This document shows positions 6,764 through 40,424 of a DNA stretch of 64,000 nucleotides, piece by piece. The position numbers and the translations under genes are program-made. Under the pieces are notes generated by a model that was not told the origin of the DNA, did no database searches, and was given only the letters and a program-made list of their open reading frames with translations. Numbering within the stretch: the first letter of the stretch is position 1; each line of letters starts with the position of its first letter. This stretch comes from Candidatus Saccharimonadia bacterium (GTDB taxonomy: Bacteria > Patescibacteriota > Saccharimonadia > Saccharimonadales > 2-12-FULL-41-12), in assembly GCA_963717365.1 (NCBI GenBank), contig OY970327.1:395599-459598 (forward strand), read 5' to 3'.

Positions 6764-6765
6764 TA

Positions 6766-6793
6766 GCTGCATTACCGTTTGCAGCCTGTTTTG
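6766..6793 (+). terminator. weak terminator-like hairpin after dnaB
   Basis: GCTGCA/TGCAGC stem (6766-6771/6780-6785) followed by a T-rich tract CTGTTTTGTT. Confidence 0.35.
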
Positions 6794-6808
6794 TTACAAT
6801 AAAGCAAG

Positions 6809-8008: not shown

Positions 8009-8067
8009 TCTGTTACACTAATAGGAGCGAGCGAGAGTTAATTTGTTAGATTAAGAGGAGATAAATT

Positions 8068-8361
8068 ATGAGTAAATTTGATCAAGCCAAAATGTTGATG
8101 AAGGTTAAAAAAATGCAAAAGGAACTGCAGAAGCAGGTAATTACTGTGTCGGCCGGCGACTCCGCAGTTATTGTTGAGATCACTGGCGAACAGAAAATCA
8201 AGCGTATTCAAATTGACCCAGAACGAGTGGATCTTGATGATATGCGTACTACAGAAAAACACGTCGAAGAAGCGGTTAAACAAGCTATCGCACAGAGTCA
8301 GAAGGTAGCAGCCGAAAAAATGCAACCAATGATGGGTATGCTTGGCAATCTAGGCCTGTAG
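8068..8361 (+). CDS. ybaB: YbaB/EbfC family nucleoid-associated protein
   Basis: 97 aa with the characteristic KMQKELQK N-terminal helix and the conserved position upstream of recR. Confidence 0.85.
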   Translation: MSKFDQAKMLMKVKKMQKELQKQVITVSAGDSAVIVEITGEQKIKRIQIDPERVDLDDMRTTEKHVEEAVKQAIAQSQKVAAEKMQPMMGMLGNLGL

Positions 8362-8375
8362 CCAGAAAAAAATAC

Positions 8376-8981
8376 GTGAGCGTACTCCCTAAAGCACTAG
8401 AAAATGTCATGAACGCCCTCGGCACCCTGCCGGGAGTAGGACCGCGTAGTGCCGAACGATATGCGTATTACTTACTACGAGCAGATCAAAGCAAGAGCCA
8501 TCAGATCGCTAAGACCCTGGATATCCTACATGCCAGTGTTAAGTATTGCCCTAAAACATTTGCCTTAATTAACGTTGATCAAGAACTTTCACCGCTATAT
8601 GTAGATCCCGAAAGAGATAAAACTGTTGTTGCCGTAGTTGAAGATCCGTTTGATATTGTGGCTCTAGAGCGAGTTGGACAGTTCAAAGGCACCTACCATG
8701 TACTCGGCGGTCTGATTTCTCCGATTGATAATGTTGGGCCAGAATCCCTACACGTGCGCGAGCTGGTGCAACGTATTGACGATGACAAGGTTAAAGAAAT
8801 TATTTTGGCTACTAACGCAAGCGTAGAAGGCGAGTCAACTGGCTTGTTTTTAGCTCAAGAGATTGGTAATCGTAAAGTTAAGATAACGCGTCTGGCGCAC
8901 GGACTGCCCATTGGACTCGACTTAGAGTATGCGGACCAAATTACCCTCGGCAGAGCTTTAGAGGGACGTCAGGCCTTCTAA
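8376..8981 (+). CDS. recR: recombination protein RecR
   Basis: GTG start. HhH motif LPGVGPRSAERYAYYLL and Toprim region YHVLGGLISP...ATNASVEGE. The zinc-finger cysteines are largely absent (see findings). Confidence 0.9.
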   Translation: MSVLPKALENVMNALGTLPGVGPRSAERYAYYLLRADQSKSHQIAKTLDILHASVKYCPKTFALINVDQELSPLYVDPERDKTVVAVVEDPFDIVALERVGQFKGTYHVLGGLISPIDNVGPESLHVRELVQRIDDDKVKEIILATNASVEGESTGLFLAQEIGNRKVKITRLAHGLPIGLDLEYADQITLGRALEGRQAF

Positions 8982-10034
8982 ATGACCCAGGAAGCAACCA
9001 TACAGCAGATAGTAAACGATTCTGAAATAATTGTAATCGTTCAGGCTGATAATCCTGATGGCGATAGCTTGGCCAGTGCACTAGCTTTGGAGCATATTTT
9101 AAGCGAGGAGGGCAAAACGGTGCATTTATACTGTGCTGCCGAAATACCAAGTTACCTGCGCTATTTGCCCGGCTGGGACCGGGTATCAAACGAATTGCCA
9201 ATTCGTTTTGATGCCAGCATTATTGTAGATACCAGCGCGATAATGCTGTTGGAACAGTTGCAGAAAGCGGGCTCTATTCAATGGCTTAAGGCAAAGCCCT
9301 GCATTATCATTGATCATCATAATGCATCAGAACCTACTATAGATTTCGCAACGGTAGCTTATATTAAGCAAGCTGTGGCCACTGGCGAATTGCTATACGA
9401 ACTTAGCGAGAAACTTAAATGGCCACGCTGCGGCGATGCCAATAATCTGATCGTAACAGCAATTATGTCGGACAGCTTAGGGCTGACCACTGAATCTGTC
9501 ACTGCACGAAGTATACAAATTATCTCTGAATTAGTTGCTCAAGGAGTTAGCATTGCAGCACTAGAAAATTCGCGCCGGTTGATGCAAAAAAAGAGCCCAG
9601 AACTGCTTAAATATAAAGCAGAGCTGTTACTGCGGGTTGATTATAATTCCGACCAGCGAATAGCATCAATCACTATTCCTTGGGAAGAAATTGAAAAGTA
9701 TAGTCACGAGTATAATCCATCAATTCTTGTAATGGATGAGATGCGCATGGTAGAAAGTGTAACGCTTGCAGTAGCCTTCAAAACGTACCCTGATGGTCGT
9801 ATTACCGGCAAACTAAGAGCTAACTATGGCTATCCAGTAGCCGCCGACATTGCAAAGCATTTTGGCGGCGGCGGTCATCCATTAGCCGCTGGCTTTAGAA
9901 TAACCGACGGCCGCTCGCTTAACGACGTAAAGGCCGATTGTATAAGCCATGCCACACAATTACTTGATACACTTAAAAGCGCACAGGATGCCAAAAACGA
10001 TGAAACTACACAATACGCTTACTCGGTCAGTTGA
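8982..10034 (+). CDS. DHH/DHHA1 family phosphoesterase (NrnA-like)
   Basis: Motifs DNPDGDSLAS, IIIDHH and GGGGHPLAAGF. Confidence 0.85.
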   Translation: MTQEATIQQIVNDSEIIVIVQADNPDGDSLASALALEHILSEEGKTVHLYCAAEIPSYLRYLPGWDRVSNELPIRFDASIIVDTSAIMLLEQLQKAGSIQWLKAKPCIIIDHHNASEPTIDFATVAYIKQAVATGELLYELSEKLKWPRCGDANNLIVTAIMSDSLGLTTESVTARSIQIISELVAQGVSIAALENSRRLMQKKSPELLKYKAELLLRVDYNSDQRIASITIPWEEIEKYSHEYNPSILVMDEMRMVESVTLAVAFKTYPDGRITGKLRANYGYPVAADIAKHFGGGGHPLAAGFRITDGRSLNDVKADCISHATQLLDTLKSAQDAKNDETTQYAYSVS

Positions 10035-11412
10035 CCTCTTTACACCACTCAGTGACAACCTGGTTCGCATGTACTCCTGTGGGCCAACTGTTTACGACAA
10101 CTTAACAGTAGGTAATTGGACCGCGTACATTCGCTGGGATGTCCTAGCACGGACTTTAGCTGCCAGTGGCTACGAGCTTGACTGGTATATGAATATCACC
10201 GATGTAGGACATTTGGTTAGTGATGGTGATGAAGGCGAAGACAAATTAGAAAAAGGTGCCCGCCGTGAAGGAAAGACTGCTTGGGAGGTAGCTGATTTTT
10301 ATACCAAAGATTTCTTAAATGGTCTGGATGCTTTAAATATTTCAATTGATCGCCGGAAGTTAATTAAAGCCACTGACCACATTCCTGAGCAAATCGCTCT
10401 TATTCAGGTACTAGAGACAAAAGGCTATACCTACATAATTGATGACGGCGTGTACTTTGATAGCACAAAGTTTGCTGACTATGGCAAAATGGCCCGGCTT
10501 GATCTAAAGGGCCAGCAAGCCGGTAAACGCATAGAAGTTGGCCAAAAGAAAACCGCTTCAGATTTTGCACTTTGGAAATTTTCTCCCGCCGATACATCTC
10601 GCGATATGGAATGGGATAGCCCTTGGGGTAAAGGTTTTCCTGGTTGGCACATTGAGTGTTCGGCCATGGCGATGAAATATCTTGGTAGAACGCTAGATAT
10701 CCATACTGGCGGCATTGATCATATACCCGTTCATCACACCAATGAAATCGCCCAGAGCGAAACAGCTACCGGTAAACAATTTTCCCGTTTTTGGATTCAT
10801 GGCAACTTTTTACAGGTTAATGGAACAAAGATAGCCAAAAGTCTAGGCAACGGCTACACCTTAAACGACATTATTGTTAAAGGGTTTACAGCTCACGACT
10901 TTCGACTTTTAGTGCTGCAAAGCCAGTATCGTACAGAAGCGAATTTTAGTTGGGAAGCATTAGAAGCAGCCCGCAATCGTCTTGGAACGTTACAAGCCTT
11001 TGCCGACTTGCGATTTCAAGCAGTACCAGGCGAATATCAGTATATTGATGTCAACTATAGTGAATTACTAGCAACTGTAGTAGAGCATTTACAAAATGAT
11101 CTTAATACGCCCAAAGCGTTAGAAGTTTTTGCTCATCTAGTAGATATTCGTCCCAGCGGCATTCCCATGCATGAAGTTAAGCCATTTACCCAGTTTATTG
11201 AACAAATCGACACGTTGCTTGGTTTGCAGTTAGGTGTTTCAACAGATATAACGGTTGCTCAAAAACAACTTATTGTCGATCGACAGTCAGCCCGGTCTAA
11301 TAGTGATTGGACTCTGTCTGATACAATTCGAGACACCTTATTAAAAGAAAATATTGCAGTCCGGGACACGCCGCGTGGTCCCGTCTGGTTTCGCGTCTCC
11401 GCTAAAGCCTAG
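10000..11412 (+). CDS. cysS: cysteine--tRNA ligase
   Basis: Start placed at the ATG at 10000 (MKLHNTLTRS...MYSCGPTVYD). Motifs WHIECSAM and a KMSKS-like KIAKSLGN. It overlaps the upstream gene by 35 nt. Confidence 0.92.
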   Translation: MKLHNTLTRSVDLFTPLSDNLVRMYSCGPTVYDNLTVGNWTAYIRWDVLARTLAASGYELDWYMNITDVGHLVSDGDEGEDKLEKGARREGKTAWEVADFYTKDFLNGLDALNISIDRRKLIKATDHIPEQIALIQVLETKGYTYIIDDGVYFDSTKFADYGKMARLDLKGQQAGKRIEVGQKKTASDFALWKFSPADTSRDMEWDSPWGKGFPGWHIECSAMAMKYLGRTLDIHTGGIDHIPVHHTNEIAQSETATGKQFSRFWIHGNFLQVNGTKIAKSLGNGYTLNDIIVKGFTAHDFRLLVLQSQYRTEANFSWEALEAARNRLGTLQAFADLRFQAVPGEYQYIDVNYSELLATVVEHLQNDLNTPKALEVFAHLVDIRPSGIPMHEVKPFTQFIEQIDTLLGLQLGVSTDITVAQKQLIVDRQSARSNSDWTLSDTIRDTLLKENIAVRDTPRGPVWFRVSAKA

Positions 11413-12497
11413 GCTTCGCGCACTTTGGTATCTGAGGGTTTAGTAAAGTGTTCTTCAACCAAAATCTTTATACATCCGGCCAGCGGAATTGCGACAATGG
11501 CTCCAAGAATACCACCAAGACCAATTCCAAGCAGGGCAGAGACAAAGACTAACAAAGGTGTCAAACCGTTACCCCGGGATTGGATATAGGGTTGTATAGT
11601 GACATTTTCTATCTGTTGGTAAATAATAAAATAAATGGCTACTGCAAGGGCTAAGGGAGCTGATACTAGTAGACAGGCCAGCACCACAATTACTGAACCA
11701 AGGATTGTTCCAATTAGAGGGAGTAAGGCAAACAGTGCAATGATGCCACCGAGTGCAATGGCATTAACCGGAGCATTGAATATTTGACTTAGTATAAATA
11801 TAACAATACTGGCAAACAGACCGCCAAGGGCGGCAATCAGCACCTGTCCATTCACGTAGTTTGTAACGACTTTGTACATTCTTTGGGCAATTTCTTTGCG
11901 ATGCGCACGCTTTGTTGCAGGCTGTATACCCCAAAACCGTTTAAGCCACTGCGGACCTTCTACCAACATCATAAAGGTTAAAACTAAAACCACGATTGTG
12001 CTGGCAACAGCGGTACCAATAGCACCAGCCGTTGAAAGAATCGGCTTACCAATATCACCAAATCTGCTACTGAAGTCCGCCGTAAAACGGTCAATCTGCT
12101 CATCTAGATTGTAGCGCGTAACAAAATCATTAATGGGAGAGTTTTCATTTTTATAATCTTGGATAGTGCTAGGTACTTCTTGAATAAAATCTACGGTTTG
12201 TTTAACAAGTGGTGGCACAACAAAGGCTATAAACGCTATTAAAACAGAGAGGACCAGGACATAGGCTACACCCGTTGCACCAACCCGGCTTTTTGAGCGA
12301 AGCATAGTAGCAATTTTAGAAACGGCTGGGTTCAGAGCTAGGGCTAGGAAAAATGAGACAAAGATAAGTGTGAGCGGTTGAATAATGTGCTCGATAAATT
12401 TTAAAGCGATTAAGCAGGCAATAGATAAGACTAGAATGCGAATGACCGTCTTAGACTCGATATTGATAGTTATTTGTTTATCTCTAAAAATACTCAT
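11409..12497 (-). CDS. AI-2E family (PerM/UPF0118) transporter
   Basis: 362 aa with ~8 TM segments and family-typical length and topology. Confidence 0.8.
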   Translation of the reverse strand: MSIFRDKQITINIESKTVIRILVLSIACLIALKFIEHIIQPLTLIFVSFFLALALNPAVSKIATMLRSKSRVGATGVAYVLVLSVLIAFIAFVVPPLVKQTVDFIQEVPSTIQDYKNENSPINDFVTRYNLDEQIDRFTADFSSRFGDIGKPILSTAGAIGTAVASTIVVLVLTFMMLVEGPQWLKRFWGIQPATKRAHRKEIAQRMYKVVTNYVNGQVLIAALGGLFASIVIFILSQIFNAPVNAIALGGIIALFALLPLIGTILGSVIVVLACLLVSAPLALAVAIYFIIYQQIENVTIQPYIQSRGNGLTPLLVFVSALLGIGLGGILGAIVAIPLAGCIKILVEEHFTKPSDTKVREA

Positions 12498-12512
12498 AAT
12501 TACTGGGTATTA

Positions 12513-13643
12513 TCAGCTGATACGGTTACTTTTGCAAGTCTTATACAGCTCTAGCAACTGTTCGGCAACGACAGGGGTATCAAATTGCTTCACTAATATC
12601 TGCTGCTTGCGGTGAATGCTGGCACGTTTTTCCTTGTCTGCCATCAAATCGTAAAGTTGTTCAGCAAATACCGTTGGCCAGTGAGCATCAATAATTGACC
12701 CCGGCACTGGCTCTAGTACACTGCGATAGCCGGGGTTATCACCACCAATTACCACGCCGCTTCCAGCTGCCATAGCTTCTATCAAGACAATGCCAAAACT
12801 TTCGCCAGACAGCGATGGAAAAACAGCTATATCAGCGGCCTGCATCTGTGCGATCTTCTGTTCATGACTTACGAAACCGTGAAAGGTCACAATACCAGAT
12901 AATTTATGTTGTTTGACATACCGTTTAAGCTCAGGTAGCAGGGGGCCACCCCCGCATATGTCTACTTGCAGATGCTCGGGCAGGCAGTTGCTTTGCTGCA
13001 ATATTGCCAGTGCTTTTAGTAACTGTTGGCAGCCTTTACGCGGCACCAAACGGCCAAGAAATAATAGATTGAATGTATCTGGCGACCGCCTGATTGGTTT
13101 AGCTGGTTGAAAAACTGCCAAGGGGACTGAGTTTGGTATTACAGTACTGGTGATTCTAAAGGTTTTTTTGGCAAAGACAGCTGCTGGAGCCGATACGCTC
13201 ACAAACGCGTCAAATCGACGCAGTGAACGCTTTAACCACATGCCAAGCAGTCTTGTACCTCCCACTGAAAGTTTGCCATACGGCAGGATATGAAATGTGC
13301 CTACTACTGCCGTACTTGCATCTGCCAAGCGAACAACTTTGGCACCAAAGAAAGGATGATACGGAATTTGGACGTGCAAAACATCAAATTTTTCTTGTTT
13401 TAGTACTCGTTTAATCTCTTTAGATGATGCAGGCAGAGGATTAGACAGTGTATTGCCGTTGAACCGGACTTTGATATTCTTAGCTAAAGAAAACACTCCT
13501 TCAAGGTCTTTGCGCGATGTTTGTCCTACCAGATAACGAACGTCGTGGCCTGCATTTGCATAGTATGCACCTAACGTGAGTATGTATTGCTGTACGCCGT
13601 CTGGTTTATCCAGCCCGTCATCAAGTACAAAGCCTATTTTCAT
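12513..13643 (-). CDS. glycosyltransferase family 4
   Basis: GT-B C-terminal signature GESFGIVLIEAMAAG and LFLGRLVPRKG. Confidence 0.85.
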   Translation of the reverse strand: MKIGFVLDDGLDKPDGVQQYILTLGAYYANAGHDVRYLVGQTSRKDLEGVFSLAKNIKVRFNGNTLSNPLPASSKEIKRVLKQEKFDVLHVQIPYHPFFGAKVVRLADASTAVVGTFHILPYGKLSVGGTRLLGMWLKRSLRRFDAFVSVSAPAAVFAKKTFRITSTVIPNSVPLAVFQPAKPIRRSPDTFNLLFLGRLVPRKGCQQLLKALAILQQSNCLPEHLQVDICGGGPLLPELKRYVKQHKLSGIVTFHGFVSHEQKIAQMQAADIAVFPSLSGESFGIVLIEAMAAGSGVVIGGDNPGYRSVLEPVPGSIIDAHWPTVFAEQLYDLMADKEKRASIHRKQQILVKQFDTPVVAEQLLELYKTCKSNRIS

Positions 13644-16676: not shown

Positions 16677-16725
16677 ACAGCACTGTTACCAACAGATATA
16701 GAAACATATCTGACAGACCAGCCAA

Positions 16726-16800
16726 TGGGGCGTCGCCAAGTGGTAAGGCACCAGTTTTTGGTACTGGCATTCGGGGGTTCGAATCCCTCCGCCCCAGCCA
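16726..16800 (+). tRNA. tRNA-Gln (anticodon TTG), CCA encoded
   Basis: Hand-folded cloverleaf: TGGGGCG/CGCCCCA acceptor (U1:A72), anticodon arm CCAGT-TTTTGGT-ACTGG, T arm GGGGG-TTCGAAT-CCCTC, G73-CCA. It is close to the E. coli tRNA-Gln pattern. Confidence 0.9.
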
Positions 16801-16801
16801 A

Positions 16802-16838
16802 TTAAATAAGCTTAGCTTCTGCTAGGCTTATTTAATTT
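16802..16838 (+). terminator. long hairpin/terminator after tRNA-Gln
   Basis: 15-bp stem TTAAATAAGCTTAGC/GCTAGGCTTATTTAA (one G-U pair), loop TTCT, followed by TTT. Confidence 0.55.
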
Positions 16839-16841
16839 ACA

Positions 16842-16958
16842 GGAGGGAAGCGAACCCGCAGGGTTCGGCGAACGAGGAACTGAGCTAAAACCAAGCTTGC
16901 TTGGCTTTAGCGAGTACCGCAGGAAGAAGCACAGGCAAAGCCTGTGCGCCATCCCTCC
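16842..16958 (+). other. GC-rich structured element (four-way junction) of unknown function
   Basis: Closing stem GGAGGGA (16842-16848)/TCCCTCC (16952-16958) encloses three hairpins at 16851-16867, 16884-16911 and 16929-16947. It is much more GC-rich than its flanks. Confidence 0.3.
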
Positions 16959-16964
16959 GCCCCA
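16951..16964 (+). repeat. 14-bp direct repeat of the tRNA-Gln 3' end (att-like scar)
   Basis: ATCCCTCCGCCCCA occurs at 16783-16796 inside the tRNA and again at 16951-16964. Confidence 0.7.
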
Positions 16965-17037
16965 ATCGTAGGTACTCATTATTTATCAATGAACTACTAG
17001 TAAACACCTTTTAAGCCAGATATAATGCTAGGAAATT

Positions 17038-19617
17038 ATGTCACTTTCTCAATTTATGTCGATGCATGGCTCCAAGATGGGTTATTTAGAAACTACATTT
17101 TTAAATAATGTCTATTTTACGGACTACGGTGACAGTGGATTAGAGTTTATCACCCCAGAAGTTGAAATTGACCGTAACGATGGAACGAACCGAACCTGGA
17201 GAATCGATTTTGTTGTTGAAACAAAAAATAGAAAATATGCAATTGAATGTGATGGTTTTAATTATCACGCCCCTGGGATGGTTTCTAAAGAGAGATTTAA
17301 TGAACTTGAACAAAAGAGAAATGAAACCGTCCGACAAGGTTTTCTTCCGGTTAGCCTATCTCGAGATCAAATAGTAGATGAGCCGCATGAAGCGATCTAT
17401 CAGCTAAGACGCATGTTTAATGCCGATCCCGAACTTTACAATATATTTCTTAAGCGAGTGTCAGACCAAATATCTCCGCATGAAGTTCAGCAAAAAGCCC
17501 TGGAAGCACTTGAGGACGCTAGAGAACAAGAGCAAAACAAGGGCTTAGTCGTCCTTGCAACTGGTTTAGGCAAAACCTACTTAAGCGCGTTTGATGCTAA
17601 AGCAGCAGCCGCGAAGCGAATTTTATTCGTAGTACATGTTGATCATATTCTTAAGCAAGCGAAAAATTCCTTTGAAGATGTTATGCCTACTCGAGCTGAC
17701 GAAATGGCATTTTTTAACGGTAGTAATAAGAATATCGAGGGAAAAAATATAATTTTCTCTACGATTCAAACTCTTACTCGAGAGAAAAACTTATCACAGT
17801 TCACGGCTGATAGTTTCGACTACATTATTATGGATGAGTCTCATCATGCTGCGGCTCCCAGCTACAAGCGTGTGCTTGAATATTTTAAGCCAAAATTCCT
17901 GCTTGGTTTGACCGCAACCCCAGTGAGGATGGACGAACAAGACATATTGCCTTTCTATAACGACAATTTGGTGTTTGAAATGAACCAAGCTGACGCAATT
18001 AAACAGGGCTATCTAGCTAGTCTCAACTATAAGGGCTTTAAAGATAACGTAGACTATTCCAATATTTTCTATAATGGCTTCCGGTACGATGTTAATGATT
18101 TAAATAAGTCGCTCATGATTGAACGCCGCGACCAAGCCGTGCTTTCAAAATTTGAAGAGCTTGCTGCAGGTAAGAAAACTATTGGCTTCTGCGTCTCAAT
18201 AGAACATGCTGAATGGTCCGCCAACCACTTTAGAAAAAACGGCATCGATGCGGTTGCAATTCATTCCAAAATTGAAGCCGGCAATTCGCATGATTATCAA
18301 ACTGCCAGCGAAATAATTGAAGCATTTGATAAAAATAATCATCAAGTTGCTTTTGTGGTAGATATGCTTAATGAGGGCATCGACATACCTGACGTTGAGT
18401 GTTTACTTATGCTCAGGCCCACCGAGTCTAACGCAATACTCACGCAGCAAATTGGCAGAGGGCTAAGAATAGCACCCCTAAAGGATGAGGTCTTAGTCTT
18501 GGATTTTATTGGTAATTACCAAACAGCACCGCGCATTCTAACTGGTTTAGGAGTTAACAACGTTGGAGACCTAAAAGAAGATAAAGAAAAAGGAATTTAC
18601 TATTATGAAAACGAGGGCAGGCGGGTAGAATTCGAGAGTGAAGTTGTAGATATATTCAAATTTATGCTTAGCCGTTCGTCTCGCAGTGTCAGAGAAGAGC
18701 TTATTGAAGATCACTGGAAAGAATATGGCAGTTATCTAGAAGAAAACACAAAAACTGGCAATAGCCTTTTCTGGAGTGTTGGGAAGAAGAATAATCACCT
18801 TGGGGTACATCTTTGGGCATTAGATTTCTTGGTAAACAATGCGGATAATTACTCCACTAACGAAGAACTGTCTGAAGAATTAAAAAAAGCGTCTGTTGAG
18901 CAATTTCCAGATAAGACAATGGAAGGTATTAGAGCATTATTTTTTAGTAAACTAATCGGTTTACTAGTTAGCACAAACCCGATCAAAACATCGTCCGCTT
19001 ATCAAAGTATTGTAGCTAGTGGCAAACAGCTACAGGACCAAGCTGCTATTGATAATTTGGTGACCAATCAGCTAGAAAAATATTATTTTTGGAATGATAA
19101 CTTTAGTTTAACGAACCGACATGAAACTAGCGGTAATGGCAGAATTAGAAAAGTGGATGAGCTATTTCATATTTATCCGTTATTCTTTATTTATGAGGTT
19201 ATTATTCGATTACATGACCTGGGATACACCAGTGACCATCTAACAAAGTTTGAGGTAAACACCTTTCTGGCATTAGCTAGAACTAATGATGAAGTGCGCG
19301 CTGTCGTAGATAGAATTATGCAGTATCGTGAACATGAAGAAATATATGAACTTGAGAAATATTTAAAACAAAAATCTGGTATGGATGCTCGATTCTTCAA
19401 AGTTTTACAATATTCTAAATACTTTGCATACTCGCCAGACAGAATAGGGCTTAAGTCCGATTATTTTGGAGAAGTGTCTACTAAGGTTTCAGAGTTCAGA
19501 AAGTTACGGAAAAATAACAAGCTTATTGAATTTACTAAAACGCAGCCCGCTCGCTATATGAAATTACTGTTTTCTTCTGACGACCTGATAACGTATCATG
19601 TTCTGCGTAATCAGTAA
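17038..19617 (+). CDS. DUF559/Vsr-like endonuclease domain fused to an SF2 (ResIII/DEAD-type) helicase plus a ~330-aa uncharacterised C-terminal domain
   Basis: N-terminus WRIDFVVETKNRKYAIECDGFNYH (D...ExDG..H pattern). Helicase motifs ATGLGKT, MDESHH, GLTATP and QQIGRGLR. The C-terminus is unassigned. Confidence 0.85.
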   Translation: MSLSQFMSMHGSKMGYLETTFLNNVYFTDYGDSGLEFITPEVEIDRNDGTNRTWRIDFVVETKNRKYAIECDGFNYHAPGMVSKERFNELEQKRNETVRQGFLPVSLSRDQIVDEPHEAIYQLRRMFNADPELYNIFLKRVSDQISPHEVQQKALEALEDAREQEQNKGLVVLATGLGKTYLSAFDAKAAAAKRILFVVHVDHILKQAKNSFEDVMPTRADEMAFFNGSNKNIEGKNIIFSTIQTLTREKNLSQFTADSFDYIIMDESHHAAAPSYKRVLEYFKPKFLLGLTATPVRMDEQDILPFYNDNLVFEMNQADAIKQGYLASLNYKGFKDNVDYSNIFYNGFRYDVNDLNKSLMIERRDQAVLSKFEELAAGKKTIGFCVSIEHAEWSANHFRKNGIDAVAIHSKIEAGNSHDYQTASEIIEAFDKNNHQVAFVVDMLNEGIDIPDVECLLMLRPTESNAILTQQIGRGLRIAPLKDEVLVLDFIGNYQTAPRILTGLGVNNVGDLKEDKEKGIYYYENEGRRVEFESEVVDIFKFMLSRSSRSVREELIEDHWKEYGSYLEENTKTGNSLFWSVGKKNNHLGVHLWALDFLVNNADNYSTNEELSEELKKASVEQFPDKTMEGIRALFFSKLIGLLVSTNPIKTSSAYQSIVASGKQLQDQAAIDNLVTNQLEKYYFWNDNFSLTNRHETSGNGRIRKVDELFHIYPLFFIYEVIIRLHDLGYTSDHLTKFEVNTFLALARTNDEVRAVVDRIMQYREHEEIYELEKYLKQKSGMDARFFKVLQYSKYFAYSPDRIGLKSDYFGEVSTKVSEFRKLRKNNKLIEFTKTQPARYMKLLFSSDDLITYHVLRNQ

Positions 19618-20659
19618 TGTGGAGCTTAATCTCATCCGCCAAAGCCTTTGCCATCATGGGTGGAACTGCATTTCCAACTTGCAACATTTGATTAGTTTTA
19701 GGGCCATAAAACCTAAAATTATCAGGAAATGATTGAAGCCTGGCCGCTTCTCTTACTGTGATACACCTGTCTTGGTGTGCCAGCGTAAACTGTCCGGATG
19801 CAGGCGTGTCAAATCTGGTAGTAATGGTGCGAGCAAAGCCGGCGGGATTAATCCGGCTCCAGGTGCCGCTATGGATTGATTTGGTTCTGTGTTCAAACGG
19901 TAAGTCCGCTTTAGTTCCTCCTATTGGGATATAAGCAAGACGCTCTAAGGCAATTAGACTGTGCTTGGTTGCTATGTGGTTCCATATACCGCTGGAGTTT
20001 TTGCGCATGTTTTTCTGATAGCTTGAGCGGGGCGAATAAGTATAGGGCATAAACTCAGCCCCCTCACCCGATCTAAGTTTTGGTAAGTCATTAATTGCTT
20101 CAGCTACTGATGTACTAACGCCGTTACCGTCAGGTAAATCAAAATCGAGTTTAATTTTTCGTCCTAAAAAAACAGCTCGGCGGCGCGTTTGAGGAACTCC
20201 AAAATTTTCTGCTTTAAGTATTTTTGCTTTTACGTCGTAGCCCAGATTACCGAATAATTCGATGATTTGTTTTTTAAAATAACCTTTTTCCGCAGTTAGA
20301 ATAGTAGGCACATTTTCTAATAAAAAGAATTCAGGCTGCACAATATCAACAACTTTTACAAACTGCTGAAACATAAAGTTCCGTTTATCATAGATCCCAG
20401 TTCTTTTACCTTTTTGAGAAAAACCCTGGCAGGGTGGTCCACCCATTACTACCGTTATTTTGTTTTGGTAAGGACCAAACACTTTTTCAAAATCTAAATC
20501 ACATATATCAGAGGAATCTACTAACGTATCTGGATGATTTTTTTTGTAGGAGTCAGCAATTGTCTGGTCATATTCATTCGCAAATACTATCTTGAATCCA
20601 GCTTGGGAAAAACCAAGTGATAATCCTCCTACACCGGCAAATAAATCAATCACATTCAT
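19535..20659 (-). CDS. DNA (cytosine-5)-methyltransferase
   Basis: Motifs DLFAGVGGLS (I), GGPPCQGFS (IV), ENV (VI) and QVGNAVPP (X). Confidence 0.9.
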   Translation of the reverse strand: MNVIDLFAGVGGLSLGFSQAGFKIVFANEYDQTIADSYKKNHPDTLVDSSDICDLDFEKVFGPYQNKITVVMGGPPCQGFSQKGKRTGIYDKRNFMFQQFVKVVDIVQPEFFLLENVPTILTAEKGYFKKQIIELFGNLGYDVKAKILKAENFGVPQTRRRAVFLGRKIKLDFDLPDGNGVSTSVAEAINDLPKLRSGEGAEFMPYTYSPRSSYQKNMRKNSSGIWNHIATKHSLIALERLAYIPIGGTKADLPFEHRTKSIHSGTWSRINPAGFARTITTRFDTPASGQFTLAHQDRCITVREAARLQSFPDNFRFYGPKTNQMLQVGNAVPPMMAKALADEIKLHITDYAEHDTLSGRQKKTVISYSERAAF

Positions 20660-21411
20660 AATAATTTAGGAGTTTTTAATAAGTCGATTATTCTCTGTAA
20701 CGCAATTTTATAATAATCTTCTTCAAGCTCTATGCCATGAAATTTTCGATTCATATTTACAGCCGCAACACCGGTTGATCCGCTACCCATAAAAGGATCT
20801 ATCACCGTCTCGCCCTCATCGGTCAATATGTTAATAAAATGCTCCAGTAGTGCCACTGGTTTTTGAGTTGGATGTTTCCCGTACTTCTTTTCTTTAGCGC
20901 CAATAACAGAAGATTCAAAATAATCATGAATTACTTTACCTTTATTATTAAATTTTCCTGTCTTAGCTCCATTTACAAAATAAATCCATGCTTCAGTAGA
21001 GTTAACAAAATGCAGATTCATATTACGTGGCATTGGATTTGTTTTATGCCATATACCGGTAGTTTTATAATAAAATCCGTTTTGTTGTGCTAGCTTAATT
21101 ATTGTTTCTACCTTCATAAGTGAAACAAATACAATTGCAGCTCCACTTTTTTTTAGCACACGAGCTGACTCTTTAAAGAATTGATCCATGTGCAGCTCCC
21201 ATTCTGTTTGCTCAATATGATCCCAATTACTGGCAGCAAAATGATTTGCACGCAGAGCGCCTAAATTTGTATCTCGACCCTGCATGAATAAGCCAAGGTT
21301 GTAAGGGGGGTCAGTTAATAATAAGTCCACCACACTTTCGTTGATTTCTGTCATTTTTTGCACACAGTCACCCATAGCAAGAGTGCAGTCTTTAGTAAGC
21401 TGGCTTTGCAT
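20656..21411 (-). CDS. beta-class amino DNA methyltransferase (N6-adenine or N4-cytosine)
   Basis: TDPPYNLG (motif IV) precedes DPFMGSGSTGVAA (motif I). Start placed at the ATG at 21411; the track uses a TTG at 21456. There is a 4-nt overlap with the C5-MTase start. Confidence 0.85.
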   Translation of the reverse strand: MQSQLTKDCTLAMGDCVQKMTEINESVVDLLLTDPPYNLGLFMQGRDTNLGALRANHFAASNWDHIEQTEWELHMDQFFKESARVLKKSGAAIVFVSLMKVETIIKLAQQNGFYYKTTGIWHKTNPMPRNMNLHFVNSTEAWIYFVNGAKTGKFNNKGKVIHDYFESSVIGAKEKKYGKHPTQKPVALLEHFINILTDEGETVIDPFMGSGSTGVAAVNMNRKFHGIELEEDYYKIALQRIIDLLKTPKLL

Positions 21412-21499
21412 ATTACTAATATTATACTGTTTATACTGGCGCAGGACTATCAACAAAGAATAAAAAGTATTATGTTATTGTATTTTGAACTGAAAATCT

Positions 21500-21868
21500 T
21501 TACTTAACTAAATTCCCACTAGTATCAAAAAACAGATTATCCCGAGTACTAAACCCTTCACACGTAGTTGATCTGTTTTTCCCCGACTCCAATACAATAC
21601 CGTCTACGATATTACTGCTTCGCAGATCGTAATATCCATAGCACCCGCCTACTTTGTCGTCACTCTTATCCAAGCAACGGGCGTGATTAGCACCATCTTG
21701 ATAATGACAGCTATAATTTGCTGCTTTTTGTGTCTCACTAATAGGGCGGGTAGAATCGCTTTGCGGCTGCGGTTCGTTTTTAGTAAGGACATATACAGCC
21801 GCGACAACACCCAGTATCAGCACAGCAGCAGCAATCAGTTTTAAAATTTTATTTTTAGCCATAGGCAC
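21500..21868 (-). CDS. hypothetical membrane-anchored/secreted Cys-containing protein
   Basis: N-terminal TM/signal anchor ILKLIAAAVLILGVVAAVYVL. No recognised domain. Confidence 0.55.
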   Translation of the reverse strand: MPMAKNKILKLIAAAVLILGVVAAVYVLTKNEPQPQSDSTRPISETQKAANYSCHYQDGANHARCLDKSDDKVGGCYGYYDLRSSNIVDGIVLESGKNRSTTCEGFSTRDNLFFDTSGNLVK

Positions 21869-21911
21869 AGTATACCTAGTTTACTTATAGTGTTAGTAAT
21901 TATTTTTCTAT

Positions 21912-22442
21912 TTATGTTTCGGCGGTTACTATGCGACCATGCACAGTATCGTCGGCAGCGACTCGATCAAAACCAGTAACAGACAGTAGCCATGTTTTAG
22001 CGTAACTTTGGGCAATTTTTATATCACCGTAAACGGGACGTAAACTTGCAACACGGGCGATGTCGACGCCACACACCGCGATAGTGCCGGCTTCCCTGAT
22101 GGACAGATCCAGCTCACCGGCCAACATCCCGTATTCTTCTGTTGGGTGTGCGCAATCAACAGAAATATCGCCCTCATTGGTGCTAATGCATAGTTTTGAA
22201 AGTATAGTGTCGACCGGCAGCCGTATTCTAAGACAAGCTTCTTGCTCGTCACCTTCAGAGGAGTCCACCTGGTTAACTATCAATTGCTTGTTAATGCGGT
22301 CATGCACAAAGCACTCCGGCGGCATAGCTTCGAGCACCGCTTCAAACAGAGAAGGATCGGTTACAACCTTTACTTCTGTATTATGTACATTTATATAGAT
22401 TTCTCGAAGAATTTCCGTAGTGCACTGCGGTGCTATAGCCAT
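21912..22442 (-). CDS. hypothetical protein
   Basis: 176-aa ORF. The overlapping ORFs in other frames look like artefacts. No motif recognised. Confidence 0.55.
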   Translation of the reverse strand: MAIAPQCTTEILREIYINVHNTEVKVVTDPSLFEAVLEAMPPECFVHDRINKQLIVNQVDSSEGDEQEACLRIRLPVDTILSKLCISTNEGDISVDCAHPTEEYGMLAGELDLSIREAGTIAVCGVDIARVASLRPVYGDIKIAQSYAKTWLLSVTGFDRVAADDTVHGRIVTAET

Positions 22443-22654
22443 AGTTATATTATTATATCATAAATATTATTTATAAGCAATTTGTGGGCTTAAATGGTAA
22501 AAAGACATTGCTGTGACAGAATTTTTTATTATCGCCTTATACCGAACCTAACATATTCATGTACAAGCGACCCACCAAAGAAAAAACGAGAGAAAATCTC
22601 TCAAGTAAGTTCTAAGGTGGGTCGCGTACGACTAGCTAGTTGGTGTAGGCGGAC

Positions 22655-23374
22655 CTACTTGGGCTTGTTCGAGTTCTCCTCGCCGGTGTCCATGCTGACC
22701 TGCCCGTTGCGAACGGTGGGGCGACGCTCGGAGTTGCGTCGGCTGTAGAGCTCAACGCCCTCGAGCTTGGCGCCGTCGCGTCCGTTGTGGATGACGGCCG
22801 GCACGAAGGTGTAGACGTTGTCGTCGCGGTTGGCGTTGACAGCCTCGACAGCGATCATGTCCGGATGGTTGGTCGGAACGACCTGGTGCTCACCCGGGAT
22901 GACGTAGGTCGAGACCTGGTAGCGGTAGAACGACCCGGTGCCACTGTTCTTGGCGGAGTAGACCACCGGAACGATGGACTTGATGTTCGGCTTCAGCCGA
23001 GCGACGATGACCTCCTGGGGGAGATCCTTGCCGCCAGCCACCTTGTCGCCCGAAACGTGCACGACCGCGCCATCGTTGGTGCGGTTCGAGAAGTCGTGGG
23101 GATGCTGGGTGGTGCCGAAGCACGATACGACCTCGACGTGACCGTCGGTGTACTCCACGAGGGCGTACAGGTCGTAGTCCTTCTTGCCCCACGTCGTGAT
23201 GAGGGTGTAGACGCCGCCTGGCGACTTCTTCATCAGCATCGTCTCACCCTGGGTGACCTTCTTCGTCGTCATCATGCCGGAGCCAGGAGGCGCCTGCGGG
23301 GATGCCGAGGGAGCGGAAGCCTGGGGAGCCGATGCAGGCGGGGCAGTCTTCTTCATCTTATCCATGAAACCCAT
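22655..23374 (-). CDS. GC-rich foreign gene; possible TerD-domain stress protein with a Pro/Ala/Ser-rich N-terminus
   Basis: 239 aa with codons strongly G/C-ending. By-eye alignment to the TerD pattern: WGKKDYDLYAL, DGAVVHVSGDKVAGG..EVIVARL, VVYSA. The CDS call is solid; the product call is tentative. Confidence 0.6.
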   Translation of the reverse strand: MGFMDKMKKTAPPASAPQASAPSASPQAPPGSGMMTTKKVTQGETMLMKKSPGGVYTLITTWGKKDYDLYALVEYTDGHVEVVSCFGTTQHPHDFSNRTNDGAVVHVSGDKVAGGKDLPQEVIVARLKPNIKSIVPVVYSAKNSGTGSFYRYQVSTYVIPGEHQVVPTNHPDMIAVEAVNANRDDNVYTFVPAVIHNGRDGAKLEGVELYSRRNSERRPTVRNGQVSMDTGEENSNKPK

Positions 23375-23568
23375 GTGTTTGCTACCTTTCGCTAGTCGTG
23401 TTCTGAACTCTGATTAGAGTCAGTAAAATGCGATAAACAAATTGTGAAGGTTCATATGACCACCTCTGATGGGCAATCCTTCATATTATACATTAATATA
23501 CTTAAATTTACAAATAGATGAGGTAGCCCAGTCTAGGAAAGTTACATTAAGTTTACGAGAAAGGTTGC

Positions 23569-24003
23569 TTAGCGCCGGTAATTTTCTAAGTATGAATTAA
23601 CATTCTCGATATCGCTGCCGACGTAGGCATAGGTATCTGGTCCTATGTCACAAAAATGCTTTACTGTAAAAGGTTGCACCGTGCTCTCGTCTTCAAAGAT
23701 AATTACTACCTGGTAAATCTCTTTATGTAGTACTCGCCTGAGTAAATTCTTTTCCACACATAGTGCTGTGAAGAGATCTCTTCGGGTATTAACTTCCTCA
23801 TCTTCTACAAAATCAGGGGTATCGAACACATATAACTTAGTTGCTCTATCATTCGGCTCACATAGCACAGCTAATGATTTATCTTGATACTTTGATTCAC
23901 TACTATACACGGGGAAGATATGAGTTCTACCGGGCAACAATAACATTGTATTTTGTTTAGGAACGGGGAGGGTTTCATTTATAAGAAATGAGGGCATAGT
24001 CAA
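23569..24003 (-). CDS. hypothetical protein
   Basis: 144-aa ORF with no recognised motif. Confidence 0.5.
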   Translation of the reverse strand: MTMPSFLINETLPVPKQNTMLLLPGRTHIFPVYSSESKYQDKSLAVLCEPNDRATKLYVFDTPDFVEDEEVNTRRDLFTALCVEKNLLRRVLHKEIYQVVIIFEDESTVQPFTVKHFCDIGPDTYAYVGSDIENVNSYLENYRR

Positions 24004-24050
24004 ATAGTATCAATTCTAGCATTAAAATAATACTGCTAAGACATACGGGG

Positions 24051-24518
24051 CTAACCCCTACTACGCCTAACTTCTACCATGCCCGGTGCACGACCATCAG
24101 GAAGTTGTGGACTATTACAAACTGTTACGGTAATGGTACGTCCAGCTTTTGCGGCGCGCATCGTTAAAGGACCCAGGCAACCTTGGGTGAGAATAGAGAT
24201 GCCCTTAGTAGCTTCATCGCGAGCTAGTTCAATATTATCAAGCATTTGTGCCGCCCCGATACGTAGACCTTTAGCTATATTCTCTGGTGAAGCAACTTCT
24301 TCAACGCCATCAACTTCCGGGTCTATAATGCCAGCTTGTTTGAGACTTTCAAATATTGCTGGGGCAACCGCGGAATCAAAGCTATCGTCAACAACCGATT
24401 TTTCAATAGTTTCTGCCATATTTTTCATCGATTCATCAATACCGATTGCATACACAACATCAGGACAGCCATCACAATTTCCCGTACAAAGTTCACTCAT
24501 AATTAACATATTATACAA
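24051..24518 (-). CDS. hypothetical protein (N-terminal CTGNCDGCPD cluster)
   Basis: 155-aa ORF. It is preferred over the antisense 24079-24612 ORF, which is Ser-rich and low-complexity. Confidence 0.5.
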   Translation of the reverse strand: MYNMLIMSELCTGNCDGCPDVVYAIGIDESMKNMAETIEKSVVDDSFDSAVAPAIFESLKQAGIIDPEVDGVEEVASPENIAKGLRIGAAQMLDNIELARDEATKGISILTQGCLGPLTMRAAKAGRTITVTVCNSPQLPDGRAPGMVEVRRSRG

Positions 24519-24643
24519 AATTACTTATATAGATGCAAATGCATGTCCTTATAGTATTACAGTCCACGAAATGAGCAATATGGCGATAATATTTATAGAT
24601 GCAATGGTATAGTTAATCATAAGCATAACCATAAGGAACAGAC

Positions 24644-26260
24644 ATGGCCCTGACTGACCAGCCAATCTGGCAGCAATTAGCAAATTATCAGCAAGCACAC
24701 CAAGGCCGCAATTTACGCCAATTGTTTGCCGAAGACGCCGAACGGGGTACAAAATTTGGGCTGCAAGCCGGTGACATCTACTTGGATTTCTCAAAAAATC
24801 TGATTGATACCGATGGGCTAAAGATGCTGTTTGAACTGGCGCGGACACAAGGGGTAGAGACTAAGCGCGACGCAATGTTTGGCGGCCAGCATATTAATAC
24901 CACGGAAGACCGGGCGGTACTCCATACGGCGCTCCGCAATCAAGCCGATCAGCCGGTTATGGTGGACGGCACTGATGTTATGCCGCAGATCCACCGAGTT
25001 TTAGAACGCATGACAGCTATAAGCACGGTTGTACGCCATCAGGGTTGGTTGGGACACACCGGGAAACCAATTAAAAATGTTATTAATATTGGCATTGGCG
25101 GTTCGGATCTTGGACCTGTAATGACTACTGAGGCACTAAAGTATTATAGCCAGAGTGATATTATTATCCGTTTTGTTTCTAATGTTGATGGTACGCATAT
25201 GGCGGAAGCAATCAAGGATCTTGATCCGGCGGAAACGTTGTTTATCATCGCTTCAAAGACCTTTACAACTGATGAGACGATGACCAATGCCCAGACAGCC
25301 AGGGGCTGGATCGTGAACGCCCTGCATGATCAAGGAGCGGTGGCTAAACATTTTATCGCTCTTTCTACCAACCGCGAGAAGGTTACAGAATTCGGCATTC
25401 ATCCAGATAATATGCTAGAAATGTGGGATTGGATTGGCGGCCGTTATTCTTTAACCAGCGCGATAGGCTTATCAACTATGGTCGCTGTTGGCCCTGATCA
25501 CTTCAAAGACATGCTTAAAGGTTTTTATTCGATGGATGAGCATTTTAAAACCGCGCCCCTTGAACAAAACGCCCCGGTAATTCTTGGTTTATTGGGCGTT
25601 TGGTACAGTAGTTTTTATGGAGCCGAGACCGAAGCTATATTGCCGTATGATCAATATCTGCATCGATTTCCAGCCTATTTGCAACAGGCGAGTATGGAAA
25701 GTAACGGCAAGAGCGTAGACCTGTCAGGTAACATGGTTAATTATCGAACGGCACCAATTGTCTGGGGTGAACCTGGCACAAACGGCCAGCATGCCTTTTA
25801 CCAATTACTTCATCAGGGAACGCATTTAATACCATGTGATTTTATTGGCTTCGCCCACCCACTCAACCGAATAGGCGTCCACCACCGTAAACTAATCGCC
25901 AATATGTTTGCTCAAAGCGAAGCGCTGGCTTTTGGAAAAACCCGGGACGAAGTAATGAACGACATCGTTCCCGACACGCTAGTGCCCCATAAAACTTTCC
26001 CTGGCAATCAGCCCAGCAACACGCTGCTCTTAACGATGCTTACTCCGCATACACTTGGACAACTGATTGCGCTATATGAGCATAAAATATTTGTACAAGG
26101 AGCGGTCTGGAATATAAATTCGTTCGACCAGTGGGGTGTGGAACTGGGCAAAGCCCTGGCAAAAGGAATTTATCCTGAGCTTGAAATCAATATGAAGGGC
26201 TATCACGATAGTTCAACCCGCAACTTAATGAGCATGTACCGGAATCTGACCGGTAATTAG
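24644..26260 (+). CDS. pgi: glucose-6-phosphate isomerase
   Basis: 538 aa with the conserved blocks [23 protein letters not shown] and SMESNGK. Confidence 0.95.
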
Positions 26261-39606: not shown

Positions 39607-39996
39607 ATGACATTTGAAGAAGATCCTAATAAAGAAAAGGGGGGAATAACTAGTCCGCCTGACTCATTAATAGGCGAAATCTCAAGTATTAGCGCTCAAG
39701 CCTATCTGAACAGTCATTCCGACGCTGAAGCCACTATTGTTGACACGAAAAAACTTATGCGTGCCAATACCAAACTAGGTCGCATGGTATTGGAAACAGC
39801 TGGCCAACTAGCAAAAAGAGGCACTTCCCCAGAAGATGCTTATCTCTTAGGAGTTATCCATGGCTTAGGACTAGCCGAGCGTCGGCGTCAGGAAGAACTG
39901 TTTGAAACGCAATTTGGATCCGAAACCTATACAGATCTAGCTGACGCCATACCAAATGAACTAAAACGACGAAATGGGCACACGTCGGAAGCTTAA
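39607..39996 (+). CDS. hypothetical protein
   Basis: 129-aa ORF with no motif. Confidence 0.5.
   Translation: MTFEEDPNKEKGGITSPPDSLIGEISSISAQAYLNSHSDAEATIVDTKKLMRANTKLGRMVLETAGQLAKRGTSPEDAYLLGVIHGLGLAERRRQEELFETQFGSETYTDLADAIPNELKRRNGHTSEA

Positions 39997-40423: not shown

Positions 40424-40424
<1 letters not shown>
39993..40424 (-). CDS. atpC: F1 ATP synthase subunit epsilon
   Basis: 143 aa downstream of atpD with a TAATG stop/start overlap. It has the typical beta-sandwich plus helical hairpin sequence pattern. Confidence 0.88.

Follow-up and report, generated by a model that had tools for sequence, protein, structure and literature searches.

A GC-rich gene for a divergent TerD-fold protein in a Saccharibacterium: composition, relatives and probable origin

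How does a gene of 63% GC come to stand in a stretch of DNA that otherwise holds 43%? The question is raised by a gene of Candidatus Saccharimonadia bacterium (assembly GCA_963717365.1, contig OY970327.1), situated at 22655-23374 on the minus strand of the 64,000-nt stretch analysed here (contig positions 395,599 to 459,598; referred to as the window, and all positions below are counted from its first letter). The gene encodes a divergent TerD-fold protein of 239 aa. A previous reading of the letters without database searches (the sequence-only reading) had explained the GC-rich patch as the recent import of a TerD-like gene from a high-GC donor, an actinobacterial host of the epibiont being the obvious candidate. 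The present analysis points to a different history. With a probability of roughly one half, the gene stems from a ter module that moves among Saccharibacteria and stands here as a lone cassette, it was placed fairly recently in a variable island beside a tRNA gene, and its actinobacteria-type codon usage is an older legacy.

Composition of the gene and identity of its product

The change in composition is abrupt. In a 200-bp profile the GC content is 0.33 at 22400-22599, 0.60-0.655 over 22600-23399 and again only 0.34 at 23400-23599. The open reading frame (ORF) at 22655-23374 has a GC content of 0.626, with 0.58, 0.43 and 0.863 at the first, second and third codon positions (GC1, GC2 and GC3), which is 19 GC points above the window outside this ORF (0.433). 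Compared with 1026 other windows of 720 bp (mean 0.434, standard deviation 0.036, maximum 0.535) its z-score is 5.3. The other 58 of the 59 ORFs in the window stand at a GC3 of about 0.41-0.42, with an ATP synthase gene as runner-up (0.54). The GC-rich stretch comprises the coding sequence and the GC-rich base of a 3' hairpin, while leader and trailer hold only 41-42% GC. The compositional step and the 239-aa ORF with its G/C-ending codons had both been noticed in the sequence-only reading and are confirmed here; of its two 60-mer counts, 41 G+C inside the patch was reproduced exactly and the flanking one is 12 rather than about 11, the lines being offset by one base.

The codon usage of the gene is foreign to its host genome, as expected from that reading. 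It correlates with r = 0.07 to the host genes, with a shift in every codon family, as against r = 0.94 to the actinobacterial homologs and 0.96 to GC-rich ter genes of Candidate Phyla Radiation (CPR) bacteria. Host genes for ATP synthase and ribosomal proteins favour AAA, GAA, TTT and ATT; the TerD-like gene uses AAG 17:0, GAG 11:0 and TTC 5:0, and contains no TTA, CTA or TCA. Expression-driven codon bias was therefore rejected, and ordinary translational selection is excluded because the bias opposes the codons of the host's highly expressed genes. Separately, the ATP synthase genes at 39993-45689 were seen to hold the highest GC3 among the host genes (0.50-0.54, against a mean of 0.41), which indicates only a mild expression-linked shift in the host genome. 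The long ORFs in alternative frames (22787-23395 on the plus strand and 22890-23192 on the minus strand) are present and, as had been proposed, are by-products of codon usage. The antisense frame was stop-free in 1000/1000 synonymous shuffles, because the gene uses no TTA, CTA or TCA codons, and the other frames lay inside the shuffle distribution.

The product was delimited from the ORF, its homologs, a family profile and a structural model; a disordered Pro/Ala/Ser-rich N-terminus (residues 1-36) is followed by a beta-sandwich (residues ~38-237). Searches with the protein itself gave no Pfam or NCBIfam family even at E <= 1, PF02342 (TerD) included, and nothing in PADLOC. In PHROGs only the unannotated family phrog_22042 was matched (E = 4e-4), and a single-sequence search of the PDB gave a match confined to the low-complexity N-terminus. 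The family is more informative. From the 92 homologs collected, a profile of 35 retrieved just two PDB entries, both TerD (3IBZ, E = 9.5e-4, and Klebsiella 2KXT, E = 0.011). PF02342 is matched by six of 35 clade and near-clade members (best E 2.4e-6), and the homolog P0035 (42% identity to the query) exceeds the gathering cutoff of 25.3 bits with a score of 27.6 (labels of the form P#### denote homologous proteins and L### the relative loci). An AlphaFold (AF2) model with a mean predicted local distance difference test score (pLDDT) of 84.8 was compared with the PDB by Foldseek. The top four matches all belong to the TerD family (9A6R SCP2, 2QZ7, 2QNG; E = 2e-7 to 3e-6, probability 1.00, target-normalised template modelling score 0.57-0.63), and the next match follows at E = 7e-3.

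Residues 46-237 of the protein align with residues 230-414 of P0042, a 414-aa TerA-type protein from Bacillus (40% identity, E = 2e-35), and the two share the motifs PVVYSAxxxGTGSF and YSxxxSExRP. The N-terminal half of P0042 is a canonical TerD domain. The window protein lacks this two-domain TerA layout (~400 aa), with only the C-terminal-type domain present. Since the identity lies with the C-terminal half of P0042 and the canonical domain with its N-terminal half, the protein is, judged by this alignment, a TerD domain of the divergent type that ends TerA, occurring here on its own. The TerD-like product proposed in the sequence-only reading is upheld by family profile, fold, TerA homology and the ter context of relatives, and loses the direct Pfam match, the check that the reading itself had suggested; membership of the TerD superfamily holds, but only indirectly.

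With TerD itself (PF02342; 2KXT; Streptomyces SCO6318, 2QZ7 and 3IBZ) the window family shares the beta-sandwich fold, a profile alignment over about 105 residues that sets the DxDL and GD...E segments against the Ca2+-loop motifs of TerD, and relatives encoded in ter clusters with TerC, TelA and vWA-TerF. It differs from it in the loops. The bipartite Ca2+ motif of TerD is reportedly (Pan et al. 2011) formed by a DxDxD-type loop and GDN(R/L)TG(E/A)GDGDDE; in the window family the latter has become SGDKxAxGxDLPQE, and DFDLDAS has become DYDLYAL. In this region DYDL, GD and the downstream E are kept and are invariant in the clade (D66, D68, G109, D110, E121). A conserved C-terminal tail of about 45 residues (YS..SE.RP...M..G..N) and the disordered Pro/Ala-rich N-terminus are further additions relative to TerD. 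The two-domain TerA-type proteins of Bacillaceae and Paenibacillus (~400-415 aa, annotated TerA or 'TerD family') match the window protein with their C-terminal half, but the latter is single-domain, without the N-terminal canonical TerD domain, and the Firmicutes gene matches the GC of its host (-3 to +5 points) whereas the window gene lies 19 points above. The actinobacterial short-form 'TerD family' proteins of Curtobacterium, Isoptericola and Kocuria have the same single-domain layout, and also a Pro/Ala-rich N-terminal linker (P0036). They differ in that gene GC equals host GC and in the absence, at the loci searched, of the clade-specific leader described below.

Relatives, ter clusters and age of the anomaly

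Judged by its pgi gene (24644-26260), the host is a Saccharibacterium, as the sequence-only reading had considered; the best pgi matches that carry a source name are Saccharimonadales/Saccharibacteria. The close homologs of the TerD-like protein (52-71% identity) with readable context all come from small-genome Saccharibacteria/CPR-type settings of lower GC, and all relatives at least 49% identical with readable context stand in Saccharibacteria/CPR-type contexts. Genome titles name Saccharibacteria for most titled loci of the clade. Actinobacterial homologs, found on chromosomes, on Curtobacterium/Rhodococcus plasmids and in Streptomyces phages, are 38-47% identical. No homolog closer than 42% was found in IMG/VR, and a viral, phage or plasmid reservoir was rejected, none being closer than about 46-47% identity.

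Trees were built by neighbour-joining on 200 columns, and several of the loci are short metagenome contigs without taxonomic labels. In a tree of 123 sequences the window copy falls in an 18-member clade (bootstrap 200/200) that contains Saccharibacteria/CPR-type contexts only. The nearest outgroup is actinobacterial, of Microbacteriaceae/Curtobacterium type, with no actinobacterial member inside the clade; the tree does not resolve the placement of the window copy among the 18 members. The best matches of the gene therefore fall in the same low-GC lineage as its host, an outcome that the sequence-only reading had itself named as refuting, and the high-GC actinobacterial donor put forward earlier is not borne out, its homologs being at most 47% identical and absent from the clade.

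Several homologs (P0003, P0012, P0021, P0014, P0028 and P0002) sit within full ter clusters, together with TelA, TerC, TerD paralogs, vWA-TerF, a phosphoribosyltransferase (PRTase), a C-C lyase and a HAD module, and ter-cluster adjacency was seen at L167, L169, L171, L174, L176 and L178. When the ter-cluster proteins of five loci were searched against the 64-kb window by tblastn, only the TerD-like gene was matched. The window copy is solitary within the 64 kb.

The GC excess extends over the clade. Wherever host genes or flanks free of ter genes could be read at a clade locus, the surroundings are poorer in GC than the gene, by 17 GC points for the flanks at L007, 12 at L008, and 18 to 19 at L087, L090 and L091. 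Third codon positions give the same picture: at L171 the host genes for EF-Ts and S2 have a GC3 of 0.45-0.50 and the ter genes 0.82-0.92, at L174 the host stands at 0.33-0.40 and the query homolog at 0.94, at L177 the genes for L31, RF-1 and PrmC lie at 0.43-0.46 and the homolog at 0.87, and host genes at L009 and L092 have about 0.4-0.6. L012, from a second CPR clade, shows the same pattern, the gene being GC-richer than host genes. Homologs in Actinobacteria and Firmicutes match their own genomes, with differences of -4.5 to +4.6 points. A reservoir among higher-GC hosts was considered and rejected, because the flank GC at L009, L012, L088, L092 and L169 came largely from neighbouring ter genes; in the real host genes at these loci GC3 is about 0.4-0.7 and mostly close to 0.5. 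Short TerD-like genes of a second group (L012, L161, L109, L115, L137, L140, L144, L147, L151 and L153) and, separately, L065 were found to lie 5-16 GC points above their flanks. A Saccharibacteria or Saccharimonadales label is attached to L012 and L065, and the flanks on the remaining contigs are low in GC. A GC excess may accordingly be a common property of ter genes in Saccharibacteria/CPR bacteria.

A further observation concerns L174, where GC3 changes gene by gene inside one ter cluster of a low-GC host (2656-12732). Its GC-rich genes encode TerD (0.95), vWA-TerF (0.85), the query homolog (0.94), TerC (0.85) and two hypothetical proteins (0.89-0.90); interleaved with them are AT-rich genes for HAD and two PRTase proteins (0.29-0.36) and a hypothetical protein (0.48). 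The AT-rich HAD and PRTase proteins are merely 26-31% identical to the GC-rich versions at other loci. Because of this low identity they are taken to be of different origin and not to reflect differential retention, and the mosaic was rejected as proof of selection.

The age of the anomaly can be judged from two Saccharibacteria genomes that carry the gene at one syntenic site (L001 and L004). Synonymous divergence (dS) is 0.58 for the gene and 0.54-1.1 for its neighbours, and because the two are equal the gene was present in the common ancestor. Its GC3 is nevertheless still 0.75 and 0.68, against 0.32-0.40 for the neighbours; since this was retained after the genomes split, 'not ameliorated' does not mean 'just arrived'. 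Under a two-state decay model that begins at a GC3 near 0.9 and tends towards a host equilibrium near 0.36, the L001/L004 copies need 0.33-0.52 decay units, which is compatible with the per-lineage dS plus the time before the split. The window copy (GC3 0.86 in a host at about 0.40) needs 0.08-0.15 units on the same model. This neutral model suggests that the window copy arrived comparatively recently in a low-GC genome, and a recent arrival is plausible in view of its GC3 near the top of the clade and its location in a variable island beside a tRNA gene. Across low-GC hosts GC3 spans 0.54-0.95, which looks like successive stages of decay.

Other substitution counts were less informative. Polarised synonymous changes between L007 and L008 number 26 GC->AT against 3 AT->GC, a count confounded by saturated, GC-rich outgroups; in the trio L007/L087 with L008 as outgroup there are 6 GC->AT and 5 AT->GC, and these 11 changes are too few for significance. 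Dating the window copy against its relatives by dS was rejected, as codon bias compresses the values and divergence is effectively saturated (proportion of synonymous differences 0.41-0.57 for all but L011). The step from lack of amelioration to recent transfer, taken in the sequence-only reading, proved too simple in the light of the clade-wide excess, a nonsynonymous divergence (dN) of 0.25-0.59 and the retention at L001/L004.

The conserved cassette and its predicted regulatory elements

The RNA features and the promoter described in this section are known from computation alone. The window, L007, L008 and L087 have homologous AT-rich non-coding flanks around the gene (~130-150 nt each way) but differ entirely in their neighbouring genes. 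Because the flanks are conserved next to different genes, the inherited or moved unit is a cassette of ~1 kb, roughly 22525-23515. Most of its elements recur throughout the clade, also in copies inside ter clusters, and the clade leaders and trailers hold 32-48% GC even in higher-GC hosts.

A sigma-70-like promoter (TTGTAA-17-TATAAT, 10/12 matches in a promoter scan) is predicted at 23485-23513 on the minus strand. Its -10 region, ATGTATAAT, is common to the window, L007, L008 and L087 in the alignment, and an extended -10, TGTATAAT, is present in the L007 subgroup. On the coding strand a TTAACAAT box lies between the extended -10 region and motif A, a clade-conserved leader motif (TTTATCGCATTTTACTG) found by motif search at 23421-23437 (minus strand), ~60 nt upstream of the start codon. 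Among the loci searched, 12 of the 13 exact matches to TTATCGCNNTATAC were upstream of a TerD-like gene. The reverse complement of motif A, here called A' (TTCGATATAATGYGATAAA in relatives), follows just past the terminator at 22528-22544 on the plus strand and forms the distal end of the conserved ~1-kb cassette. The 17-nt form of the motif, TTTATCGCnnTATACnG, has two matches in the window against 0.15 expected, so that A and A' bracket the cassette; an operator, a promoter element and a terminal inverted repeat are all conceivable. A related sequence, GGCGATAATA, was observed at 24578-24591 upstream of pgi and is partly kept in L172 and L173.

Between motif A and the start codon a leader hairpin (CUGACUC-UAAUCA-GAGUUCAG, 23403-23423, minus strand) is predicted, with a consensus of 7 bp by RNAalifold. 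Over 13 loci 95.6% of cells are paired, a value reached by 0/500 shuffles and compared with 7-37% in slid controls, and compensatory changes occur in two of the pairs. The signature of the leader, TATACCNGCTC-N3-8-GAGT, adjoins only the TerD-like gene and only in this clade, with four scattered matches elsewhere, and was absent from the actinobacterial and Firmicute loci searched. A search of Rfam 15 with 22400-23700 on both strands gave no leader or trailer family; the only two matches, both in the coding sequence and far below the gathering score (E = 0.75 and 7), are most likely due to chance. The hairpin is a candidate for a new cis-regulatory RNA element. The clade-specific leader and hairpin were also seen at L009 (DATLJN010000110.1, 16.9 kb, with low-GC genes for EF-Ts and S2), a contig labelled Magnetospirillaceae; this taxonomic label is probably a binning error.

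Directly 5' of the Shine-Dalgarno sequence GAAAGG (23385-23390) lies a box, B (ACGACUAGC, 23391-23399, minus strand), that is complementary to a box in the 3' untranslated region (UTR), B' (GCUAGUCGU, 22628-22636, minus strand), 19-27 nt past the stop codon. Both boxes occur at the same positions in L007, L008, L087, L090, L167, L169, L171, L174 and L009. Their co-variation was read from the sequences of five loci: UGACUAG in the 5' UTR and CUAGUCA in the 3' UTR at L167 and L171, GAUGUAACUAG and CUAGUUACAUC at L090, UCCUC plus AAGGAG and GAGGA plus CUCCU at L009, and a pairing of 15-16 bp in total, including the Shine-Dalgarno sequence, at L169. The pairing spans the Shine-Dalgarno sequence itself in L169, L009 and L167/L171. 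Cognate UTR duplexes have a mean energy of -28.5 kcal/mol, compared with -23.5 kcal/mol for non-cognate ones. RNAduplex on long UTR segments was noisy, with z <= -2 against shuffles at 8 of 14 loci and a failure at L091. With moderate support, these data suggest an interaction of the mRNA ends that would gate translation or stabilise the transcript; alternatively, the complementarity could be an inverted repeat at the DNA level. Pairing between 5' and 3' UTRs occurs in bacterial mRNAs such as Staphylococcus aureus icaR and Bacillus subtilis hbs, and the likeness lies in a Shine-Dalgarno-adjacent box that is complementary to a 3' UTR box and co-varies with it, which for the present gene is a matter of sequence evidence.

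The 10-bp inverted repeat noticed earlier just past the stop codon (22567-22576/22615-22624) does exist. It forms the outer stem (GCGACCCACC/GGUGGGUCGC) at the base of a long 3' hairpin at 22567-22624 on the minus strand, for which a 121-nt fold gave -48.6 kcal/mol (z = -6.6). Nested in the outer stem, a scan predicted an intrinsic-terminator-like hairpin at 22603-22587 (minus strand), followed by a U-run, with the tail TTTTTTCTTT. Six of the ten outer-stem pairs show compensatory changes across 14 loci, and because of these changes the repeat is read as a conserved terminator stem, not as an insertion scar.

Genomic setting, origin and significance

The cassette lies in a variable island of 7.8 kb (16801-24643), delimited by Pfam annotation and synteny between a tRNA-Gln gene (16726-16800) and pgi. 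The island contains genes for a ResIII helicase, a C5 methyltransferase, an N4/N6 methyltransferase and four small proteins without family, besides the TerD-like cassette. The distant relatives L172 and L173 (pgi 69-72% identical) keep the blocks GT4-GT4-305aa-VanY(-tRNA-Gln) and pgi-GH10-6PGL-G6PD...Sua5-trehalase-UvrD on the two sides; between these they carry entirely different genes, without the TerD-like gene. The island is a hotspot for the accretion of genes of mixed composition, in keeping with horizontal acquisition. It shares with known tRNA-gene genomic islands the atypical composition, the variable region adjacent to tRNA-Gln and the co-located restriction-modification genes. It differs from them in being heterogeneous, with restriction-modification genes at 36-39% GC and the TerD-like gene at 63%, and in that the anomaly persists across a deeply diverged clade without an identified donor pool. 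The dating of such islands by amelioration is said to go back to Lawrence and Ochman.

Some further features of the setting were recorded. The restriction-modification-like module occupies 17038-21456 inside the island (GC 36-39%); its ResIII/SWI2-SNF2 helicase (859 aa) faces a convergent C5 methyltransferase gene, with a 3' end overlap of ~80 bp, and the N4/N6 methyltransferase gene overlaps the latter by 4 bp. A 22-nt direct repeat (16710-16731 and 24650-24671; 19/22) brackets the island exactly. Upstream of tRNA-Gln, its left copy falls in a stretch of 13 nt that L172 does not have. The repeat is probably not an attachment (att) site, as its pgi-side copy is native, conserved pgi coding sequence, and it may be due to chance or go back to an earlier rearrangement. 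The final 14 nt of tRNA-Gln, ATCCCTCCGCCCCA (16783-16796), are repeated exactly 168 bp downstream (16951-16964), with a similar second copy at about the same distance in L172 (~3444-3620); this could be what is left of an old att-like site, or a conserved element of the island edge. Elsewhere in the window, a 499-aa ORF in the region 55208-58293 begins with MKAYLLARVSTDDQ, which may be the N-terminus of a serine recombinase given its resemblance, and adjoins the lowest-GC stretch (56-59 kb, 0.37-0.41). That stretch may be another mobile or acquired segment.

In the preferred reading the patch would be a functional stand-alone transcription unit of ~1 kb encoding a divergent TerD-fold protein, related to the TerA-type proteins of tellurium resistance and stress. 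The core genes of the ter module carry actinobacteria-type codon usage, forming GC-rich islands wherever host genes are readable, and another Saccharibacterium with ter genes would most likely have supplied the window copy by horizontal transfer. Measured in synonymous divergence, this transfer would be fairly recent (0.08-0.15 decay units under the neutral model), and the GC-rich codons would go back to an earlier, actinobacterial-type origin of the ter module and not to a direct import from the present host. The protein would be a cytoplasmic TerD-type protein, possibly linked to Ca2+ and, as the family suggests, aiding stress or phage tolerance; expression would probably be controlled after transcription through the leader hairpin and the 5'-3' UTR pairing beside the Shine-Dalgarno sequence. 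A passage of PMC8123226 that cites Pan et al. 2011 and Daigle et al. 2015 ties the Ter system to tolerance of tellurite, oxidative stress, phage and colicin.

Several results weigh against this account. No GC-matched source for the clade was found among 185,579 GTDB species genomes, JGI metagenomes, a 5.8-billion-protein set, plasmids, phages and IMG/VR. Taken with the deep divergence of the clade copies (dN as given above), this means that pure import followed by decay needs an unsampled GC-rich reservoir behind the clade-wide high GC3. The nearest sampled relative of the protein is just 63-71% identical, so that donor and date cannot be fixed. The nearest pgi relative is only 72% identical, on which ground the host would belong to an isolated lineage, and the comparison with empty sites has low resolution. 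No integrase or att duplication delimiting the cassette was found. The Ca2+ motifs are conserved only in part: the first loop has lost its third Asp, and the acidic run is replaced for the most part.

The missing reservoir is handled better by an explanation which we regard as possible but clearly less probable, namely that ter genes have long been resident in Saccharibacteria and that their GC-ending codons are held there by selection or by a biased process such as GC-biased gene conversion. Candidate forces would be selection on mRNA structure or stability and codon-biased translation of a stress regulon, and the window copy need not then be a recent arrival. An excess that is clade-wide across deep divergence, that is confined to coding third positions while leader and trailer stay at 32-48% GC, that changes sharply from gene to gene within clusters (L174) and that recurs in a second CPR clade and at L065 is in line with it. 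So is the 6:5 ratio in the trio L007/L087/L008, where decay predicts roughly 5:1, with counts too small to decide. Decay, on the other hand, accounts for the range of GC3 in low-GC hosts (0.54-0.95) as a series of stages and fits L001/L004 quantitatively. The shift affects every codon family, like a genome-wide mutational signature, and is contrary to what the host's highly expressed genes prefer; to our knowledge, effects of gene conversion in bacteria are far smaller than 40-50 GC3 points. The L174 contrast also loses force, the identity of the AT-rich HAD and PRTase genes (26-31%) pointing to a different origin. A more specific and still more tentative version holds that Saccharibacteria keep their core ter genes at actinobacteria-type, GC-ending codons within AT-rich genomes; with leader hairpin and UTR pairing, these genes would make up a stress module peculiar to the epibionts, biased in its codons and gated after transcription.

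That the gene came recently and directly from an actinobacterial host of high GC, and is not yet ameliorated, is improbable. Saccharibacteria are epibionts of Actinobacteria, the codon usage correlates with that of actinobacterial homologs (r = 0.94), the nearest sequences outside the clade are actinobacterial (Microbacteriaceae/Curtobacterium type), and the short form is mobile in Actinobacteria on plasmids and in Streptomyces phages; but the best actinobacterial identity is at most 47% compared with 52-71% in CPR contexts, the 200/200 clade is free of actinobacterial members, and the gene at L001/L004 predates a genome split of dS about 0.6. The extended -10, the leader hairpin, the B/B' boxes and the terminator, moreover, were in no actinobacterial locus searched, and these AT-rich, clade-specific regulatory parts argue against direct actinobacterial descent and for a source among ter-carrying Saccharibacteria. 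That the abrupt step betrays a chimeric join or a high-GC contaminant fragment is hardly credible. The GC boundaries coincide with the start and stop codons, and a join at the GC step is excluded by the AT-rich flanks, which have homologous counterparts beside this gene in other Saccharibacteria. In addition, a 9.4-kb contig of the independent Logan assembly ERR12037361 carries the identical protein with the same eight neighbours, and the same mosaic occurs in >15 independent assemblies.

In the literature no work tying TerD to Saccharibacteria was found, both names co-occurring only in an unrelated pharmacomicrobiomics review. For annotation, the results define a Saccharibacteria-specific, Pfam-invisible subfamily of TerD, the stand-alone TerA C-terminal domain, and soil-type Saccharibacteria carry full ter stress clusters. 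For genome evolution, the rule that a GC-rich patch is a recent import from the obvious high-GC host fails a phylogenetic test here. Either an unsampled GC-rich gene pool feeds Saccharibacteria or reduced genomes can maintain compositional anomalies, and both outcomes matter for inferences about host-epibiont transfer in CPR bacteria. If the codon-biased stress module were real, GC richness would be a selected feature and not the fading footprint of a transfer. The leader hairpin and the complementarity of the 5' and 3' UTRs offer a candidate for a new cis-regulatory RNA in a phylum with almost no characterised gene regulation.

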